Position numbers and translations under genes: made by a program | The notes under the pieces: model-generated | Database searches by the model: none | What the model was told of the DNA's origin: nothing | Seen by the model: only the letters and a program-made list of their open reading frames with translations | Shown: positions 14,750 to 28,827 of the stretch, in pieces | How positions within the stretch are numbered: the stretch's first letter is position 1 | Layout: each line of letters opens with the position of its first letter | Origin: Bacteroidota bacterium | Lineage (GTDB): Bacteria > Bacteroidota > Bacteroidia > Bacteroidales > GCA-2748055 | Direction: 5' to 3' | DNA: 28,827 nucleotides | Assembly (NCBI GenBank): GCA_030642565.1 | Contig: DAOWNM010000001.1 | Coordinates: forward strand, 1-28,827

Positions 14750-14766
14750 TTGCTTCTGAGAAGCAA
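14750..14766. promoter_or_regulatory. Perfect 8-1-8 inverted repeat TTGCTTCT-G-AGAAGCAA (candidate operator or hairpin)
   Basis: Seen directly, 10 nt upstream of ATG 14777; function inferred. Confidence 0.4.
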
Positions 14767-14776
14767 AGCTTTAAAT

Positions 14777-16783
14777 ATGACCAAAGAAAAAGCTGAAGAG
14801 TTACTCCGTGCAAAATTTGGATTGCCAGAATTCTACGATGAACAATGGGAAGCCATAAGCAGATTACTAAATGGGGAGCGAGTTTTAATGATCCAACGCA
14901 CTGGTTTCGGAAAATCTTTGGTTTATCAATTTGCCGGAATAGTGCTTGAAGGAACGACTGTGATTTTTTCGCCGCTGATTGCCTTAATGCGTGATCAGGT
15001 ATCTAAACTACAGGAATTAAACCTACCGGCAGCCTTCATAAATTCTACATTGAATAAGGAGGAGAAAGAGGAAATACTTCGAAAAGCAGAAAATGGGGAC
15101 TATAAGTTATTATATATCACTCCTGAAAGACAGGAAGATGAGAAATGGCATCAAGTTATTCGTAAAATGAGGTTAGGAATGGTCGTTGTGGATGAAGCAC
15201 ATTGTATTTCGGCATGGGGACATGATTTTAGGCCCTCATATCGCAGAATAGTAAATGTGGTAAAACAGCTACAAGATGATTTTCCTGTATTAGCATGTAC
15301 CGCAACGGCTACCATGCGGGTTCAACATGACATTGAAACTCAATTTGATAATTCAAAACTAACAGTCCTCAGGGGGAATCTTGGCAGAGACAACTTCAAA
15401 TTGAATGTAGTACACTGTAACAATCAGGAAGACAAAATGATTGGTGTATTGCAACTCGTAAAATCTTTGAAAGGAACAGGTATTATTTACTGCGGAACAC
15501 GAGCTGTATCTGAAACTTATTCAAACTGGCTGGATTTTAATGGAATCAATGCCACATATTACAATGCTGGATTGGACAATGAAACCAGGAAGCGAATTGA
15601 AGTTGCACTCATAAATGATGATTACAAATGCATTGTTTCCACAAATGCTCTTGGTATGGGAATGGATAAACCAAATCTTCGTTTTGTAATACATACCCAA
15701 ATTCCTACATCACCTATGCATTATTATCAGGAAATAGGTCGTGCTGGCAGAGACGATCTTCCAACGACCATTGCATTGTTTTATTCCCCACAAGACGATG
15801 ATCTACCCTTATCTTTTATTAATAACAATAGACCGCCTGTTAGAGAGTATGAGAGGTTAATCCACATCTTAAGCAAAGAACCATTAAGCAGAAACGCCAT
15901 AATAAGGGAGATAAACCTTAAACAAACTGCCGTTGCTGTGATTCTTGCCGATTTAATTGATCAACGGATTGCAACGAAGATTACGAGAGGTAATTACACA
16001 TATTATGAATTAAAGTTTAATGCTCCTGCCCTGAATACTCAGGATTTTGAAGATTTACGAAATGCAAAACTGGCTGATTATGAACAAATGAGAGGATATT
16101 TAGAAGGGAATATATGCAGGATGAACTACCTAAGGAATTATTTGGGTGATGAAACAACCGAACCCTGTAGTAAATGTGATACGGATCTAAAAAAATCATA
16201 CAGAGTGTCTGCATCAGAGGAGCAACTTGAGGTCATTGACAGGTTCAGAGAAAATTACTTCCCTGTTCTAAAATTAAAGCGCAGAACTAGTATCTTAGTT
16301 GATGGAGTAGCGGCATCCTTTTATGGTGTTACAAATGTTGGTAAAATGATTCACCATAGTAAATATGAGAATGGTGGTGATTTTCCTGATCATCTGCTAA
16401 GACTAACGCTAAGAGCATTTCGAAAACACTATCAAGCAGAACAGTTTGAGATGGTGTTGTATGTGCCATCAACAGATTCTGGAGATTTAGTTAAGAATTT
16501 TGCTGAAAAAATTGCCCGTTCTTTGAAGTTTGAAATTTCACATGGTCTGGTAAAAAAAAGACAAACAGAACCTCAGAAAGTGTTTGAATCAGTAATTGGA
16601 AAGAGGGAAAATCTGAAAGGGGCATTCACAATTACTGAGGAGGTTAAAGACAAAAAGATTTTGTTGGTTGATGACATTTATGATAGCGGTGCATCGATTA
16701 AAGAAATTGCTGATATGCTGAAATTTAAAGGGGCAGCTTTAGTTGCTCCACTGGTAATTGCAAAAACAATCGGAGGAAAGTAA
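14777..16783 (+). CDS. RecQ-family helicase fused to a C-terminal ComF-like phosphoribosyltransferase (PsyrT-like toxin)
   Basis: QRTGFGKS, SPLIALMRDQV, VVDEAHCISAWGHDFRPSY, ACTATAT, YYQEIGRAGRD, CRM...CSKCD Zn region, PRTase motif ILLVDDIYDSGAS. No HRDC domain. Confidence 0.88.
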   Translation: MTKEKAEELLRAKFGLPEFYDEQWEAISRLLNGERVLMIQRTGFGKSLVYQFAGIVLEGTTVIFSPLIALMRDQVSKLQELNLPAAFINSTLNKEEKEEILRKAENGDYKLLYITPERQEDEKWHQVIRKMRLGMVVVDEAHCISAWGHDFRPSYRRIVNVVKQLQDDFPVLACTATATMRVQHDIETQFDNSKLTVLRGNLGRDNFKLNVVHCNNQEDKMIGVLQLVKSLKGTGIIYCGTRAVSETYSNWLDFNGINATYYNAGLDNETRKRIEVALINDDYKCIVSTNALGMGMDKPNLRFVIHTQIPTSPMHYYQEIGRAGRDDLPTTIALFYSPQDDDLPLSFINNNRPPVREYERLIHILSKEPLSRNAIIREINLKQTAVAVILADLIDQRIATKITRGNYTYYELKFNAPALNTQDFEDLRNAKLADYEQMRGYLEGNICRMNYLRNYLGDETTEPCSKCDTDLKKSYRVSASEEQLEVIDRFRENYFPVLKLKRRTSILVDGVAASFYGVTNVGKMIHHSKYENGGDFPDHLLRLTLRAFRKHYQAEQFEMVLYVPSTDSGDLVKNFAEKIARSLKFEISHGLVKKRQTEPQKVFESVIGKRENLKGAFTITEEVKDKKILLVDDIYDSGASIKEIADMLKFKGAALVAPLVIAKTIGGK

Positions 16784-16827
16784 AACGAACGAATGTGATT
16801 TTCAGATAATTATAGAATTTTAAGCGG

Positions 16828-17994
16828 ATGACAGAGAACAATATACCTTATTGGATGGCTTTTGCTCATGCAAAGAGATTCACGAACAGGCGAAAGATGG
16901 ACTTTCTTATTGAAATTGTTCATGCTAAGGAAACCATTGGAGATGCATTGAAGAAAATCAAGTCTGGTGATAAACTTGGGTTTACATTTTCCGATATTGA
17001 ATGGGATGGTATTCAGGAAGCGATTGTTGAAATACCTAATTATTCATTTTTAGCAGAAGAATTGACCAATCAAGGCATTGTGATTGTGAGCGTTATGGAA
17101 AAATACGCGTACCCCGGGATATTGAAAGAGAACTTAAAAAAAGATGCGCCAATCGTTATTTATACCAAAGGGAATGCTGATTTGCTGAATAAAAAAAGTA
17201 TTGCGATTGTTGGTTCAAGGAACAGTTCGAAAACATCATTAGACTTCACTGACAGAATCGCCAAAAAAGGTGTCAGGAAACAATCTGTAATAATTAGTGG
17301 CTTCGCTAAAGGTGTTGACAAGCAGGCTCTTGACTCTGCCTTGAAATATCATGGACAAAGCATCATTGTACTACCGCAGGGGATTGACACATACAAAACA
17401 CAAACATACTATCCGGAGGTTATAAAAGGTGATGTTTTGGTGATTAGCACATATCATCCTAAAGCACCTTGGTCAGTTGGATTAGCAATGGATAGAAATA
17501 AAACAATTTATGGGTTAGCAGAGGAAATATATGTAGCAGAATCAGCTGATAAGGGAGGTACATGGGAAGGTGTTATCAATGGTTTAAAAAGAGGTAGAAA
17601 GGTATTCGTAAGAATGGCATTTTCGAATGAGAAGAATGCAAATAATATATTAATTAATGAAGGTGCAACACCAGTTGATTTTGATGGAATTGAAATCAGG
17701 CAGGAAGAACTTGAAAAAATAACTGCAAGTGAACCATTGCATGAGTATCATTCTGCTACAAGTCTATCAGATAAAGAAATAGTCGAAAAAATAATCGTAG
17801 AATTAAAATCAAAACATGGAAAAGGAATTACCGTAAATGAAGTTATTCAGGTTTTGCAATTGGACGAGAAAACAGCTAAAAAACTAAATAGAATACTTTC
17901 AGCAAGTTCGAAACTGAAAAAAGAAAAAAAAGGAAGGTATAATTATTTTCATCTGAGTAGCAGCACTCCTGAACAAAGCAGTATGTTTAGCTAA
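16828..17994 (+). CDS. DprA/Smf-like protein with C-terminal winged-helix extension (PsyrA-like antitoxin)
   Basis: AIVGSRN, IISGFAKGVD, AMDRNKTIYGL, YVAESADKGGTWEG Rossmann motifs; directly downstream of the RecQ-PRTase gene with the same low GC. Confidence 0.87.
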   Translation: MTENNIPYWMAFAHAKRFTNRRKMDFLIEIVHAKETIGDALKKIKSGDKLGFTFSDIEWDGIQEAIVEIPNYSFLAEELTNQGIVIVSVMEKYAYPGILKENLKKDAPIVIYTKGNADLLNKKSIAIVGSRNSSKTSLDFTDRIAKKGVRKQSVIISGFAKGVDKQALDSALKYHGQSIIVLPQGIDTYKTQTYYPEVIKGDVLVISTYHPKAPWSVGLAMDRNKTIYGLAEEIYVAESADKGGTWEGVINGLKRGRKVFVRMAFSNEKNANNILINEGATPVDFDGIEIRQEELEKITASEPLHEYHSATSLSDKEIVEKIIVELKSKHGKGITVNEVIQVLQLDEKTAKKLNRILSASSKLKKEKKGRYNYFHLSSSTPEQSSMFS

Positions 17995-23440: not shown

Positions 23441-23479
23441 AAGGAATTTTTGATTATTTTTATAGAAATTGCTTGCTGT

Positions 23480-26014
23480 ATGAGAAGAGTTCTGTTATTA
23501 TCTTTCCTGATATTACTTTCTGCTCCGGCCCTGATTTTTGCACAGAGAGATTCGATACGCCCCATTTTTCTGAATGCAGAGTCATGGTTCCTGTTTGAAG
23601 CGTATTCCGATGCCCTTCCCCTTTACGAGTCCCTTCTTAAAGCGGACCCGGGCAATAACAACCTCAACTACAAAATCGGCATATGCCTCCTGAACGATCC
23701 CTACCAGAAAGACAAAGCGATCCAGTACCTGCTTGAGGCAAGCAGCAACATCAACCCATCTTATAAAGAGAACAACTTCAAAGAACGGACAGCCCCGCCC
23801 GATGCGCTCTACTATCTGGGCAATGCTTACCTGGTCAATGAACTGCTCAACCGTGCCATTGAGTCCTACGAGGAGTTCCTTGAGGTAATGGACCACGAGG
23901 TGTATGATGAAGAGCTTGTTCTGGCACAGATCCGCTCCTGTAAAAATGCGCAACGACTCAAAACCATGCCGGTGGATATCGATCTTACCCTGATCGATTC
24001 TCTTATCAATACTCATTATTCCGATATACACCCTGTGGTGTCGGGCGATGGAACAAAACTGGCATTTGTAACCGTACTGCCATTCTATGACGGGGCCTTC
24101 TATACCGAAAAGAGGGAGGATGGATGGTCCTATCCCCAGATGATTACTCAAATGATGGGATTTGATGCAGATGTCTATCCGGTAGCCCTCTCCCACGATG
24201 GAACCGAAATGATCCTCTATTACGACGATGATTATGTCGGGAACCTCTATTACAGCAAGCTTGAGGATGGTCTGTGGACAACAGCCACCAAAATGGGTGA
24301 AAACATATCCACCAAATTCTGGGAATCTCATGCCAGTTTCAGCAGAGATGGCCAGACACTCTATTTCACCAGTAACCGGAAAGGAACCAGCGGCGGTCTT
24401 GATATCTATATGTCTGAGCTTCAGCCCAATGGGAAATGGGGCATCCCCGTAAACCTGGGAACCACCATCAACACCCGCTACAATGAGGAGTGCCCCTATA
24501 TCAGTGAAGATGGCCAGACCCTTTACTTTAGTTCATACGGTCATTACAACATGGGAGGGTATGACATCTTTTACTCCAAAAAGAACAAGGATGGCACCTG
24601 GGCAGAACCTGTCAATATAGGTTATCCCATCAATACAACTGACGACGACCTCTTTTTCCAGCCCATCAATAACGGCAATGGAGCGTATTATTCCCTGTAC
24701 AGTCCCAGTGGCATCGGACTTCACGATATCTATTACATGAACATCTATTCGGTGAACAATCCCCGATTCTACTCCGTTACCGGCAATTTCCGCACGGAAG
24801 ACGGCAGGATTGATTCTACCCGTATGGCCATCTACGTGATCGATACCGGCAGCGGCGACACACTTATTTACACCACACCGACAGAAGAGGGAGCGTTTGC
24901 CTTCGAACTGAAACAGGGAATCTATAAGCTTCATTTCAAAGGTGAAGGATATGAGGAACTTATCAGGCCACTTCAAATCAATGCCGGGTCAGAAAAGGAA
25001 GGGATCACACTTGCTAACAACATTGAGCTCACACTCATTGAAGAAGAGGCCGAACTGTATGAAGGTGAAGAGAGCAAAATTAAGCTGACGGAATCACAGT
25101 ATGAAGGAGTGGCAAATGTCGCTATTATTGTACCTGTCAATGTACCTAAAGGGAGTACCGTTATTATCAGGACCTACCAGGATTCTACGCTGATCCGCAC
25201 GGATACCATTGTGACAGAGAAACGGAAAACCAACCTGCAGATTGTTCCCCTGCCGGGCAGCAGTGAGGTGGAGCTGGAAATGACCGATAAAAAGGGGAAC
25301 ATTCACAGGAACCGCTTTACAGTGGTGGGCAGCGAACCTGTGGGATTGGCTTCACCGCAGGAAGTTGAGACGGTGGATATTGCTGATGAGCAGCCAGCGA
25401 CCCCGGCAGATCCCATCTATGAGGATCCAATTGGAATCATGATGTTGCAGCTGAAAAGCAGGTCCGATAGCGCCCTTCATGATGAGCTGGTCAGGCAGTT
25501 GCTGATTGAGCAGTCAGACGGACCACTGAAAGAGTATCTGCAGCAACTGGACCTGGAAGCTGAAGGTATCCACACTGACCAGGAGCTACTCGGTCACCTG
25601 GAGAAAGTGGCTGAAGCAGAGGGTTTTACCATGGACGATGTTAGGAAGGCAATGCTGGAGAGCCTGGAGAGGCCGCTGGAGGTTGATCATCTATATGAAG
25701 AGCTGCTCAATACCAGCGATGGAATAATCAAAGATATACTGGAATCACTGGATCTTCGCGGCGAGGAGATCTATACAGTCGATGAATTGATCGATCTGCT
25801 ATCCAGAGAACTGGAGGAGAGAGGAGAGAGCAGGAAGGAGATTGAAAAGTTACTCTCCGAACTGTTTGGAGAACAGTATAGCGGGAGCGATACCCCCAAC
25901 AATAAAACAGGTTGGCCCCTGCTGGTGCTGCTTGCTGTTGCAGGTTCCGGGCTCATCTGGTTGATCATCGCCTGGTGGAGGCGCCGGGAAAAAAGGGAGA
26001 AACAGGGAGATTAA
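23480..26014 (+). CDS. Exported TPR + PD40 propeller + beta-sandwich protein with helical repeats and a C-terminal TM anchor (PorE-like, no OmpA domain)
   Basis: Signal peptide ending IFA-Q; TPRs; PD40 motifs SFSRDGQTLYFTSNR and ISEDGQTLYFSS; SVTGNFRTEDG beta-sandwich; WPLLVLLAVAGSGLIWLIIAWW-RRREK end. ATG 23480 preferred. Confidence 0.82.
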   Translation: MRRVLLLSFLILLSAPALIFAQRDSIRPIFLNAESWFLFEAYSDALPLYESLLKADPGNNNLNYKIGICLLNDPYQKDKAIQYLLEASSNINPSYKENNFKERTAPPDALYYLGNAYLVNELLNRAIESYEEFLEVMDHEVYDEELVLAQIRSCKNAQRLKTMPVDIDLTLIDSLINTHYSDIHPVVSGDGTKLAFVTVLPFYDGAFYTEKREDGWSYPQMITQMMGFDADVYPVALSHDGTEMILYYDDDYVGNLYYSKLEDGLWTTATKMGENISTKFWESHASFSRDGQTLYFTSNRKGTSGGLDIYMSELQPNGKWGIPVNLGTTINTRYNEECPYISEDGQTLYFSSYGHYNMGGYDIFYSKKNKDGTWAEPVNIGYPINTTDDDLFFQPINNGNGAYYSLYSPSGIGLHDIYYMNIYSVNNPRFYSVTGNFRTEDGRIDSTRMAIYVIDTGSGDTLIYTTPTEEGAFAFELKQGIYKLHFKGEGYEELIRPLQINAGSEKEGITLANNIELTLIEEEAELYEGEESKIKLTESQYEGVANVAIIVPVNVPKGSTVIIRTYQDSTLIRTDTIVTEKRKTNLQIVPLPGSSEVELEMTDKKGNIHRNRFTVVGSEPVGLASPQEVETVDIADEQPATPADPIYEDPIGIMMLQLKSRSDSALHDELVRQLLIEQSDGPLKEYLQQLDLEAEGIHTDQELLGHLEKVAEAEGFTMDDVRKAMLESLERPLEVDHLYEELLNTSDGIIKDILESLDLRGEEIYTVDELIDLLSRELEERGESRKEIEKLLSELFGEQYSGSDTPNNKTGWPLLVLLAVAGSGLIWLIIAWWRRREKREKQGD

Positions 26015-26107: not shown

Positions 26108-27898
26108 ATGAGAAGGCTTTTCCTGTTCACGTCTTTTTGTCTTCTATCTTCAATTATCCTTGCCCAGAACGTCAGGGTTGACTTTAACGATGGTGAGTTC
26201 TTTCTTGCTGAGGAGGACTACGAGGAGGCCCTGTATGCCTTCGGGAAAGTGTATAACAAGGGATACCAGGACAACGCATATATTAACTACCGGTTGGGAT
26301 TATGTCTGATCAATATTCCCGGGCGAAAAACTGAATCAATCCCCTACCTGGAAAAAGCAGAAGAGAGCATTTCGACCAATGCAAAGGAGGGGAAATTTGG
26401 AGAGAAGAATGCCCCGCCTGTAACTCTTTTATACCTTGGTAATGCTTACAGGATCAATATGGAGATTGATAAAGCCATTGAGAAGTATAACACATTTGCC
26501 AAATATATAGATTCCAAAGATGAAACCTTGCAGGCCTATGTGGACCAGCAGATCGTTGCCTGCGGAAATGCACTGGTGGGAACCACCAGTCCTGTTGAAT
26601 ATAAGATTGGGAACCTGGGACAGCTCCAGGAGACCCATACATCGAGGTATAACATGATGGTATCGGGCGACCTCCAGACCATGGCCTTCATGGGGAAAAA
26701 TCCGTTTTACAGTGGTGTCTACGTGGCAGTTAAGAACGGCGACGTATGGGGCAAACCAATGAACATTACCCCCTCCATCGCTTCTGACGGGAATATGGAC
26801 GTGGTAGGGTTGTCCAACGACGGCAAAGAGATGCTGCTGGCTGTTAGAGACGAATTTACAAGCAACATCTATATCTCAGTCTATGAGAACAAACGATGGA
26901 ACCCGGCAGTCTCCATGGGCAAGCCAGTTAACTCCAGGTATTACGAGGCACATGCAACTCTTTCGCCAGATGGCAAATCGATCTACTTCTCCAGTAACCG
27001 GAAAGAGTCTTTGGGTGGGATGGATATCTTCAGGTGCGACATGTTGGACAATGGCGCCTGGGGAGAGCCCGTCAACCTGGGGCCGGCTATCAATACCATG
27101 CTGAATGAGGACGTACCGGTAATGAGTCCGGATGGAAAACGGCTCTATTTCTGTTCACAGGGACACAGTACCATGGGAGGATTCGATGTATTCTATTCGG
27201 AGTTGCTTGAAGATGGCAGCTGGCACGATGTACCTGTCAACCTGGGCTACCCTCTGAACACCTCCGATGATGACTACACCTTTTCACCCATGGGAGTGAA
27301 GGAGGAGAACAGCTCATTCATATTTACTCAGGGAAAAACGCTGGAATATGATCTCTATAAATACGCGATGATAGGCCGCAACGAAACACCTGTTCCAGTC
27401 AGCATGGACGAAGAGGAGGAGGTGGCAGAAGAGGCAGTGGCAGAAGAGATACCGGAACCAGAACAAAAGGCTCCACCGGAGAAATACTACTTGAGGCCCA
27501 TCTATTTTGGTTTTGACAGCGATGTACTTTCCAGAGAGGGCATATCAAGACTGGATATCCTCACATCCATTCTGGAGAAACATCCCACGCTACAGCTTGA
27601 AATTACCGGGCACACCGATGCCAAGGGCACCTTCGACTACAACCAGCGTCTCTCTGTTAATCGCGCAAAATCCGTATACATGTACCTGATACTTAACGGC
27701 ATTTCAAACGATCGAATGATCGCAACCGGGATGAGTGAGAGCGAGCACGTGGCCAGGAACACAACAAGAGATGAGAGAGATGCTCCCGATGGCAGGAAGC
27801 TGAACCGGAGGGTTGAATTCAAGGTTGGCATTTCGGAAGATGTGATTATCGAAATGGCAAAAGTGGAGGTTCCTGACTATTTGAAACTGGATGAGTAG
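26108..27898 (+). CDS. TPR + PD40 + OmpA_C peptidoglycan-binding protein (PorE-like)
   Basis: Signal peptide ending ILA-Q; TPRs; LSPDGKSIYFSSNR, MSPDGKRLYF; OmpA_C motifs GHTDAKGTFDYNQRLSVNRAKSV and NRRVEF. Confidence 0.9.
   Translation: MRRLFLFTSFCLLSSIILAQNVRVDFNDGEFFLAEEDYEEALYAFGKVYNKGYQDNAYINYRLGLCLINIPGRKTESIPYLEKAEESISTNAKEGKFGEKNAPPVTLLYLGNAYRINMEIDKAIEKYNTFAKYIDSKDETLQAYVDQQIVACGNALVGTTSPVEYKIGNLGQLQETHTSRYNMMVSGDLQTMAFMGKNPFYSGVYVAVKNGDVWGKPMNITPSIASDGNMDVVGLSNDGKEMLLAVRDEFTSNIYISVYENKRWNPAVSMGKPVNSRYYEAHATLSPDGKSIYFSSNRKESLGGMDIFRCDMLDNGAWGEPVNLGPAINTMLNEDVPVMSPDGKRLYFCSQGHSTMGGFDVFYSELLEDGSWHDVPVNLGYPLNTSDDDYTFSPMGVKEENSSFIFTQGKTLEYDLYKYAMIGRNETPVPVSMDEEEEVAEEAVAEEIPEPEQKAPPEKYYLRPIYFGFDSDVLSREGISRLDILTSILEKHPTLQLEITGHTDAKGTFDYNQRLSVNRAKSVYMYLILNGISNDRMIATGMSESEHVARNTTRDERDAPDGRKLNRRVEFKVGISEDVIIEMAKVEVPDYLKLDE
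27422..27448. repeat. GTGGCAGAAGAG repeated with 15-bp period in the acidic linker (VAEEA-VAEEI)
   Basis: Copies at 27422-27433 and 27437-27448. Confidence 0.8.
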
Positions 27899-27917
27899 TT
27901 TTATAAGCCTGAAAGGT

Positions 27918-28827
27918 ATGAAGAGACACCTGTCTTTGTCCATATTGCTTTGTATGGTTACAGTCTCCCTCCTGGCCCAGACAGCAGAGACCAATTTTTA
28001 CGATGCACTCTTTTTCTATGAAGAGGAGGAGGATTTCCAGGAGGCGGGTTATCTGTTTTATGAGGTTCTCAGTTTTGAGCCCAACAACGCCAATGTCAAG
28101 TTCCTGCTGGGCAAATGTTACAACAACATCCAGGGATCGGAACACAAAGGGATTCCCTACCTGAAACAGGCTACCCAAAATGTCACCCTGAAATACAAAA
28201 GCAACAAGTATTCAGAAAAACGGGCCCCTCACCACACCTGGTTCTACCTGGCGGAGGCATATATCAAAACCAACCAGATGGATAAAGCACTTGATGCCCT
28301 CAACAGCTTCCGGGATCTGAAAGATTTTGAAAAAAAATACAATGCCCGGATCACCGAAGAGGCCATACTGGCAGTGGAAAGAGCCAAGATTATCAAGGAT
28401 GCTGAAATCAATATGCGGGGACTCTATTTCAATGAACCCATCAACAGTCCCAGTGATGACTACAACGGAGTGATCTCCGGAAATGGCAAGGTGATGGTCT
28501 GGGCCAATAGCAAGACCTTCTACGAGGCGGTCTATATGTCCATCAGAGAGAACGACCAGTGGGGGCTTCCTCTGTTAATTACACCCCAGATCGTTTCGGA
28601 CGGCGACCTCCTGCCGGCAGGGCTCTCCTACGACGGAACAAGCCTCCTGCTGGTCAAAACCGACAAAAGGGGTAATACCGACATCTGGTTAAGCCGCTTC
28701 AATGGCAACATCTGGAGTCCGGCCGAACCGCTCAAAGGAGCGATTAACTCCAACAGCGACGAGGATCACGCCTCTTTCAGTCCGGACGGCCGGTATATCT
28801 ATTTCTCCAGCGACCGGCGTGGTGGAG
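27918..28827 (+). CDS. Third TPR + PD40 paralog, 3'-truncated by the window edge (absent from the ORF track)
   Basis: Open from ATG 27918: MKRHLSLSILLCMVTVSLLA-QTAETNFYDALFFYEEEEDFQEA...EPNNANVKFLLGKCY...ISGNGK...LSYDGT...HASFSPDGRYIYFSSDRRGG. Confidence 0.88.
   Translation, partial: MKRHLSLSILLCMVTVSLLAQTAETNFYDALFFYEEEEDFQEAGYLFYEVLSFEPNNANVKFLLGKCYNNIQGSEHKGIPYLKQATQNVTLKYKSNKYSEKRAPHHTWFYLAEAYIKTNQMDKALDALNSFRDLKDFEKKYNARITEEAILAVERAKIIKDAEINMRGLYFNEPINSPSDDYNGVISGNGKVMVWANSKTFYEAVYMSIRENDQWGLPLLITPQIVSDGDLLPAGLSYDGTSLLLVKTDKRGNTDIWLSRFNGNIWSPAEPLKGAINSNSDEDHASFSPDGRYIYFSSDRRGG

Follow-up and report, generated by a model that had tools for sequence, protein, structure and literature searches.

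Positions 1 to 28,827 of contig DAOWNM010000001.1 (assembly GCA_030642565.1, a member of the Bacteroidales; this whole 28,827-nucleotide stretch is called the window below) carry a gene for an 844-residue protein that we read, with a probability of about 0.6, as a type I inner-membrane protein holding a PorE/TolB-like head in the periplasm; it probably forms the inner-membrane arm of a trio that would tether the envelope. The protein belongs to an uncharacterised but conserved family of some uncultured (sediment) Bacteroidales lineages. To our knowledge, PorE-like tetratricopeptide repeat (TPR)-propeller proteins are known only as peptidoglycan- or outer membrane-associated proteins, with a debated role as a type IX secretion system (T9SS) component or as a Pal-like tether. 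From its N-terminus, the protein comprises a signal peptide, a TPR-like region, a PD40 propeller, two beta-sandwiches, an acidic linker, a helical stalk and a single transmembrane (TM) helix with a short basic tail (Table 1). An initial annotation, made from the sequence alone, had supposed that this architecture was not already characterised, and our literature search likewise found no paper describing it.

The membrane topology proposed here starts from the hydropathy profile, in which only two segments are strongly hydrophobic, residues 1–21 and 812–833. The open reading frame (ORF) runs on the plus strand from the ATG at 23480 to the stop codon at 26012–26014. An alternative in-frame start, a TTG, lies 5' of it at 23450, and 23480 is the likely start because the majority of relatives begin with MRRVL. 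The 30 bases before the ATG (23450–23479) translate in frame to L-I-I-F-I-E-I-A-C-C, and a similar MIKFIKIA.. extension occurs in the annotation of several database homologs; these bases are probably a conserved AT-rich leader or regulatory DNA and not coding. No cysteine is present within residues 1–30 and there is therefore no lipobox, the latter as the initial annotation had noted. Directly after the hydrophobic core, A21, Q22, R23 and D24 are invariant in a 30-sequence alignment of close homologs, and signal peptidase I (SPase I) is predicted to cut before Q22, the signal ending in ...IFA↓QRDS. The Bacteroidetes Q-rule has a Gln at +1 as the signature of SPase I substrates (PMC5837995, PMC10653852), and the predicted cleavage between A21 and Q22 would fit this rule. 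Position −3 is Ile and not a small residue, which might point to a signal that stays uncleaved, with the protein held in the inner membrane at both ends. Such an arrangement is improbable, however, given the invariant A21-Q22-R23-D24, the Gln at +1 that is a hallmark of cleaved SPase I substrates in the phylum (PMC5837995), and the same A↓Q pattern in both neighbouring paralogs.

The sequence of the second hydrophobic segment strongly suggests a stop-transfer anchor of the classic type, its positive side facing the cytoplasm. It comprises 22 residues with Kyte-Doolittle values of up to 2.46 over 19 residues, is helical in an AlphaFold2 (AF2) model, and has Trp at both ends and Gly in mid-helix (G822/G824), with G822 at least 90% conserved in diverse members. 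In the tail that follows, the 30-sequence alignment shows R836 as invariant and a conservation of at least 90% for both R834 and R835; 65 of the 69 complete orthologs have a TM helix with two or more consecutive Arg or Lys residues behind it. The invariance of AQRD after the signal peptide and of R836 after the TM helix, together with this 65/69 count, argues that the features are not due to chance. Hydropathy thus agrees with the initial annotation, which had described a hydrophobic helix of about 22 residues followed by RRREKREK. Its further proposal, a type I inner-membrane protein with a periplasmic head, is also what the signal peptide, the single TM helix, the positive tail and the AF2 model predict, and a cleaved signal and this orientation are in keeping with hydropathy, the positive-inside rule and conservation. 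Since the protein has no cytoplasmic domain, an anchor is a better description than a signal transducer. Two further observations concern this region. In one subclade of distant orthologs (L073, L063, L067, L076, L081 and L085) a Glu lies within the membrane helix (…LEGLLI…), which is unusual for a simple anchor and may reflect contact between helices in the membrane. Among the 69 ORFs, four (L033, L034, L061 and L091; three of them of 510, 746 and 659 residues and one of 1196) reach their stop codon without a C-terminal TM helix; these may be broken genes or assembly errors in metagenome-assembled genomes (MAGs).

The arrangement of a TM helix and then, at the very C-terminus, a cluster of Arg also resembles that of PEP-CTERM and GlyGly-CTERM signals. 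The helix and basic tail could accordingly be imagined as a removable sorting signal (for an exosortase, rhombosortase or sortase) or as a rhomboid substrate, with the mature protein released or re-attached. The nearly invariant mid-helix Gly would suit such a role, rhomboids cut proteins in type I orientation, and a rhomboid gene lies 4–6 kb downstream in at least 30 related loci. That gene is generic, however (35.7 bits against a rhombosortase cut-off of 84), and stands among housekeeping genes (holA, HAD) that are equally conserved. Moreover, diverse members have no conserved motif in front of the helix: in distant ones neither this stretch nor the TM sequence itself is conserved, and all that persists is the Gly in mid-helix and the basic residues that follow it. 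The CTERM models of NCBIfam give no match either, the best being MYXO-CTERM at E 3.9. This lack of sequence conservation in and before the helix, combined with the absence of a CTERM match, points to a plain anchor more than to a signal of the exosortase or rhombosortase type, and we consider a sorting signal very improbable.

The head is recognised by the Pfam PD40 model PF07676 (E 4.6e-20, 3 repeats). Pfam TPR matches ahead of it are weak (residues 42–84 and 107–135; best E 2e-4, under gathering scores), and precomputed PF13432 and PF07719 annotations are present in this region of homologs. A phmmer search of the head against PDB sequences returned nothing at E≤0.01. Among NCBIfam models the best match is to CHU_0125 (NF053607; 154.5 bits against a cut-off of 620, E 3.9e-45, head only); PorE (NF052230) gives 127.5 bits against a cut-off of 600 (E 4.9e-37), in an alignment that begins at residue 107 and covers residues 107–500 only, and TolB (TIGR02800), a family with an N-terminal alpha/beta domain and a six-bladed propeller, gives 23.7 bits against a cut-off of 343, too little for membership. 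A TPR and PD40 head, as initially annotated, is consistent with these domain matches and with the homology to PorE and CHU_0125.

Homology is not the same as membership, and the protein differs from both families in how it would be attached. PorE, for which the reference is the T9SS-associated PGN_1296/PG1058 of Porphyromonas gingivalis, is a lipoprotein with TPR, WD40/PD40, carboxypeptidase regulatory (CRD) and OmpA_C domains, and its OmpA_C domain and peptidoglycan-binding residues are essential (PMC12773672, PMC7192894). The protein studied here has a TPR region, a beta-propeller and a CRD-like sandwich in the same order, and would likewise be periplasmic; whereas PorE ends in OmpA_C, it has an SPase I signal, a second sandwich, helical repeats and a C-terminal TM helix. 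We therefore rejected PorE membership on the sub-cut-off score, the missing lipobox and the missing OmpA_C, and a real PorE is encoded on another contig of the genome, outside the window (G000:C130:11414-13333, minus strand; 691.7 bits with NF052230, above the cut-off). The label of PorE-family paralog given in the initial annotation does not hold in this sense. About ten PD40-head paralogs are present in the genome in all. CHU_0125 of Cytophaga hutchinsonii is a Pal-like protein that ends in OmpA_C, binds peptidoglycan and is required for outer-membrane integrity (PMC5891637), and many PorE homologs of gliding Bacteroidota are non-lipoproteins (PMC12773672). With these the protein shares a non-lipoprotein signal peptide and a TPR-PD40 head, and the gene at 26108–27898 is of this type; unlike CHU_0125, however, the protein has no OmpA domain and is predicted to be membrane-anchored. 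Membership of the CHU_0125 family was likewise rejected, with a score under the cut-off and OmpA absent.

Residues 520–844 are not covered by any significant Pfam or NCBIfam match. AF2 modelling of residues 431–844 from a 67-sequence alignment gave a mean predicted local distance difference test score (pLDDT) of 86.9 and the order beta-sandwich, beta-sandwich, disordered acidic linker, nine helices (residues 650–796), disordered tether and long terminal helix spanning the hydrophobic segment, so that the two beta-rich domains, the acidic linker and the helical repeats of the initial annotation all appear in the model. The structure prediction and Foldseek comparison it had suggested identify the first sandwich as CRD-like and find no solved-fold match for the helical part. 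For sandwich 1, Foldseek gives a match (E 4.3e-5) to 1qmu, domain II of carboxypeptidase D, with an rmsd of 2.3 across 89 columns, from which we take this sandwich to be the CRD that is also present in PorE; a sub-threshold CarbopepD_reg_2 match (E 0.15) is seen in the protein itself, and PF13620 in homologs. The linker differs in length and sequence between family members. Searches with Pfam and NCBIfam found no OmpA domain anywhere in the 844 residues: the C-terminal 230 residues are modelled as helices and a TM helix where PorE has OmpA_C, and the C-terminal half is recognised neither as OmpA nor as a known stalk fold, which supports the OmpA absence claimed initially.

The helical part, modelled separately, has a pLDDT of 83.4 and consists of two four-helix units of about 67 residues that share the core motif SDGxLKxYLxxLDLxxExIxTxxELxxxL. 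Between orthologs the unit occurs from zero to more than 10 times, and this variation in repeat number accounts for the spread in length of the complete orthologs (555–1484 residues, median 954, n=69). Against PDB folds, the best Foldseek hit has an E of 1.4 and a wide VIA-align comparison reaches a best Z of 4.9, which is noise level for helical models; phmmer against PDB sequences gave a best E of 0.12, and the ESM Atlas yielded no usable match. The stalk repeat is thus an unannotated module without a Pfam model or solved fold. A loop in the stalk, DLEAEGIHTDQE, looks EF-like in this protein. No significant Pfam EF-hand match exists in the 844 residues, and the EF-hand or calcium reading of this loop (LDLEAEGIxT) was dropped: an EF-hand has conserved ligands at loop positions 1, 3, 5 and 12, and positions 3, 5 and 6 of this loop vary freely in distant members. 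One distant relative of 2108 residues passes the EF-hand_9 whole-protein cut-off, with no single significant stretch.

The gene is the first of three with the same kind of head. Its downstream neighbour has a head 41% identical to that of the TM-anchored protein, with PD40 (E 3.8e-18) followed by OmpA (E 3.4e-17), and scores 208 bits with the CHU_0125 model and 181 bits with the PorE model, both under the cut-off. In 51 of 54 related loci, the gene for the TM-anchored protein has an OmpA-domain paralog downstream. The third gene is cut by the end of the window; a complete ortholog (L011:14402-15871) encodes 489 residues with TPR and PD40 only. In a tree of 57 heads (quick IQ-TREE maximum likelihood, SH-aLRT support), the 18 TM-anchored heads all share a single branch (support 99), those with an OmpA anchor fall in a clade with a support of 97, and the free ones in a clade with a support of 99. 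Topologies within the three clades are broadly similar as judged by eye, and the true PorE of the genome and its other PD40 paralogs fall far outside them. The tree thus indicates that the three anchoring types are old co-inherited lineages and not the product of a recent domain swap. The initial annotation had described the OmpA domain as replaced by a stalk and anchor; the domain is indeed absent, but the TM-anchored heads form their own old clade and a recent swap is not what happened. The trio sits in a conserved housekeeping neighbourhood (lysA, recR, holA, rhomboid, HAD), normally followed by a GNAT gene. At one locus (L110, G111:C5:25000-40000) the upstream glycosyltransferase family 2 (GT2) fusion gene is directly followed by the GNAT gene and the whole trio is absent; being missing as a block in this genome, it behaves as a gain/loss cassette.

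How widely the family is distributed was assessed by several searches. A word-indexed search with residues 520–844 found 74 proteins of 537–1036 residues, whose available source names are Bacteroidales or Bacteroidota metagenome assemblies and whose annotation is at most 'PD40 domain-containing'. With residues 431–844 as query, HMMER run exhaustively over 1.84 billion cluster representatives gave 142 clusters (at 50% identity); among the listed matches that extend as far as their C-terminus, most have a hydrophobic helix and an R/K-rich tail there. Relatives are encoded at no fewer than 551 loci (one genome per species), the best 80 of which all come from uncultured Bacteroidales or Bacteroidota MAGs. 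With a profile of the stalk and TM helix, the module was detected in 15 of 148 good-quality genomes sampled evenly across the order, and no match was obtained in 300 further genomes of the class, about 290 of them from other orders. Of the 24 genomes of the window's own genus, 23 have it. DNA carrying this stretch is found in marine sediment and cold seep metagenomes; no RNA sequencing run containing it was listed.

The homology to PorE raises the question as to whether the protein is a T9SS accessory, for instance an inner-membrane PorE variant that connects the PorK/N ring or PorP with the side of the PorLM motor. Contact of the PorE propeller with PorP has been proposed (PMC12773672), and the bona fide PorE implies that the genome probably has a T9SS. 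The score far under the PorE cut-off and the position of the true PorE in the head tree nevertheless speak against such a role, as does the lack of the OmpA_C domain that is essential to PorE function (PMC12773672). No T9SS gene is present in the window or in the conserved neighbourhood, and T9SS is much more widespread than a module found in only 15/148 sampled genomes of the order and in none of some 290 genomes that represent the other orders of its class. A T9SS function is therefore quite unlikely, and the bridge to a T9SS-like complex suggested in the initial annotation finds no T9SS gene nearby and nothing that ties this gene to T9SS.

The gene immediately upstream suggests a different partner. 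It encodes a fusion of GT2 with a WbaP-like membrane scaffold, composed of an N-terminal GT2 domain, four TM helices, CoA_binding_3 and what remains of a WbaP-type phosphoglycosyl transferase (PGT), a KRLFD...reentrant helix; compared by eye with PGT motifs, the catalytic core of the PGT is presumably missing. The TM-anchored protein might then be a periplasmic accessory to the glycan pathway of this fusion, e.g. a guide for a polymer across the periplasm. All 65 related loci with room for it have a GT2 fusion homolog directly upstream, in the same orientation as the gene, and in the window the gap is just 39 bp. On the other hand, the fusion is far commoner in the 148 genomes, with about 100 full-length homologs, than the TM-anchored protein with its 15/148, a 2-oxoacid dehydrogenase E2 gene stands between the GT2 gene and the trio in some lineages, the GT2 gene precedes the GNAT gene without any trio in G111, and divergent stalk-bearing members are encoded on a different contig from the GT2 gene or 26 kb away from it. 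Since the wider surroundings are a conserved housekeeping gene order (lysA, recR, holA) as well, a glycan-pathway role appears unlikely. The adjacency is probably positional, as judged from the commoner GT2 gene, the interposed E2 gene, the trio-less genome and the members encoded elsewhere. The full-length GT2 fusion homologs (44–57% identity, about 100/148 sampled genomes of the order) are widespread and apparently uncharacterised in their own right. Elsewhere in the window (14750–17994), a gene for a RecQ-helicase/ComF-like phosphoribosyltransferase fusion and a DprA-like gene lie between alaS and a sodium:solute symporter gene; the pair has no counterpart in six same-genus relatives, in which alaS is directly followed by the symporter gene, so that it looks like an insertion in this genome.

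Table 1 Features of the 844-residue protein and its neighbouring genes in the window.
Feature	Residues	Position in window	Strand	Basis
GT2 fusion gene, 659 aa		21461-23440	+	39 bp upstream of target
Signal peptide (MRRVLLLSFLILLSAPALIFA), predicted	1-21	23480..23542	+	Hydropathy peak; no Cys; AQRD invariance
TPR-like helical region	~22-150	23543..23929	+	Weak Pfam TPR matches, homolog annotations
PD40 (TolB-like) beta-propeller	~151-430	23930..24769	+	PF07676
Beta-sandwich 1, CRD-like	431-525	24770..25054	+	AF2 pLDDT >94, Foldseek
Beta-sandwich 2, Ig/Fn3-like	526-618	25055..25333	+	AF2 pLDDT >92; tandem Ig-like Foldseek matches
Acidic, Pro-rich disordered linker	~619-649	25334..25426	+	AF2 pLDDT 47-66; composition
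Stalk, two acidic ~67-aa helical modules	650-796	25427..25867	+	AF2 pLDDT 83-95; internal repeat
Disordered tether	797-811	25868..25912	+	AF2 pLDDT <50 (model residues 372-385); not conserved
TM helix (WPLLVLLAVAGSGLIWLIIAWW), predicted	812-833	25913..25978	+	Hydropathy, AF2, orthologs
Basic tail RRREKREKQGD, predicted cytoplasmic, and stop codon	834-844	25979..26014	+	Positive residues after TM helix
Paralog 2, 596 aa: signal peptide (ILA↓QNV), TPR/PD40 head, OmpA_C		26108..27898	+	Pfam, NCBIfam
Paralog 3, TPR/PD40 head without anchor, cut by window end		27891..28826	+	Pfam, NCBIfam, ortholog

Domain order, family and cassette are established here by computation; signal cleavage, topology, partner binding and tethering are inferences. 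Returning to the type I inner-membrane protein that we favour, a possible course of events can be outlined. The N-terminus would be exported by Sec and cut by SPase I between A21 and Q22, after which residues 812–833 would stop transfer and anchor the chain, leaving the 11-residue basic tail in the cytoplasm. From the membrane outward there would follow the tether, the two acidic four-helix modules, the acidic linker, the two beta-sandwiches, the PD40 propeller and, at the tip, the TPR region, with the stalk serving as a flexible spacer of variable length. The three co-inherited paralogs would combine a common head with different anchors (a TM helix, OmpA-type peptidoglycan binding, or none), and the trio could be an envelope-tethering or scaffolding module of the PorE or Tol-Pal kind, to which the TM-anchored protein would provide the inner-membrane attachment. 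Several findings weigh against this reading. Known members all come from uncultured organisms, and the stalk and TM module, with its presence in only about 10% of the genomes sampled evenly across the order, is not a core envelope function. Between orthologs the stalk may be almost absent or reach about 750 residues, a spread that speaks against a fixed-length ruler.

Tol-Pal is probably the nearest functional analogy, the resemblance lying in a possible way of working and not in family. PorE itself has been interpreted as a fused CpoB-TolB-CP-Pal tether (PMC12204202). In the trio, the TPR region of the TM-anchored protein would correspond to CpoB, its PD40 propeller to TolB and the OmpA-type partner next door to Pal, and the predicted inner-membrane anchor with its long helical periplasmic spacer would be TolA-like in role. 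TolA has its anchoring helix at the N-terminus and works with the TolQR motor, to which it is coupled, whereas the helix here is C-terminal and motor genes are not adjacent; the trio moreover shares one head, while the Tol-Pal proteins are unrelated. As a tentative extension, to which we give a fairly low probability, the trio might be a motor-less tether in which association between heads couples the inner membrane and the wall as in Tol-Pal, the free head acts as a regulator or cap, and the number of repeats tunes the reach.

If true, such a motor-less trio would be a kind of envelope tether not described before, and the acidic helical module a new periplasmic spacer domain. A PorE-like head on an inner-membrane anchor would make this head a portable module that is used at different layers of the envelope, and the trio a natural three-protein system with which to probe what the head binds. 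It may also represent a Tol-Pal-like solution in a phylum in which no pal genes have been detected (PMC12204202).

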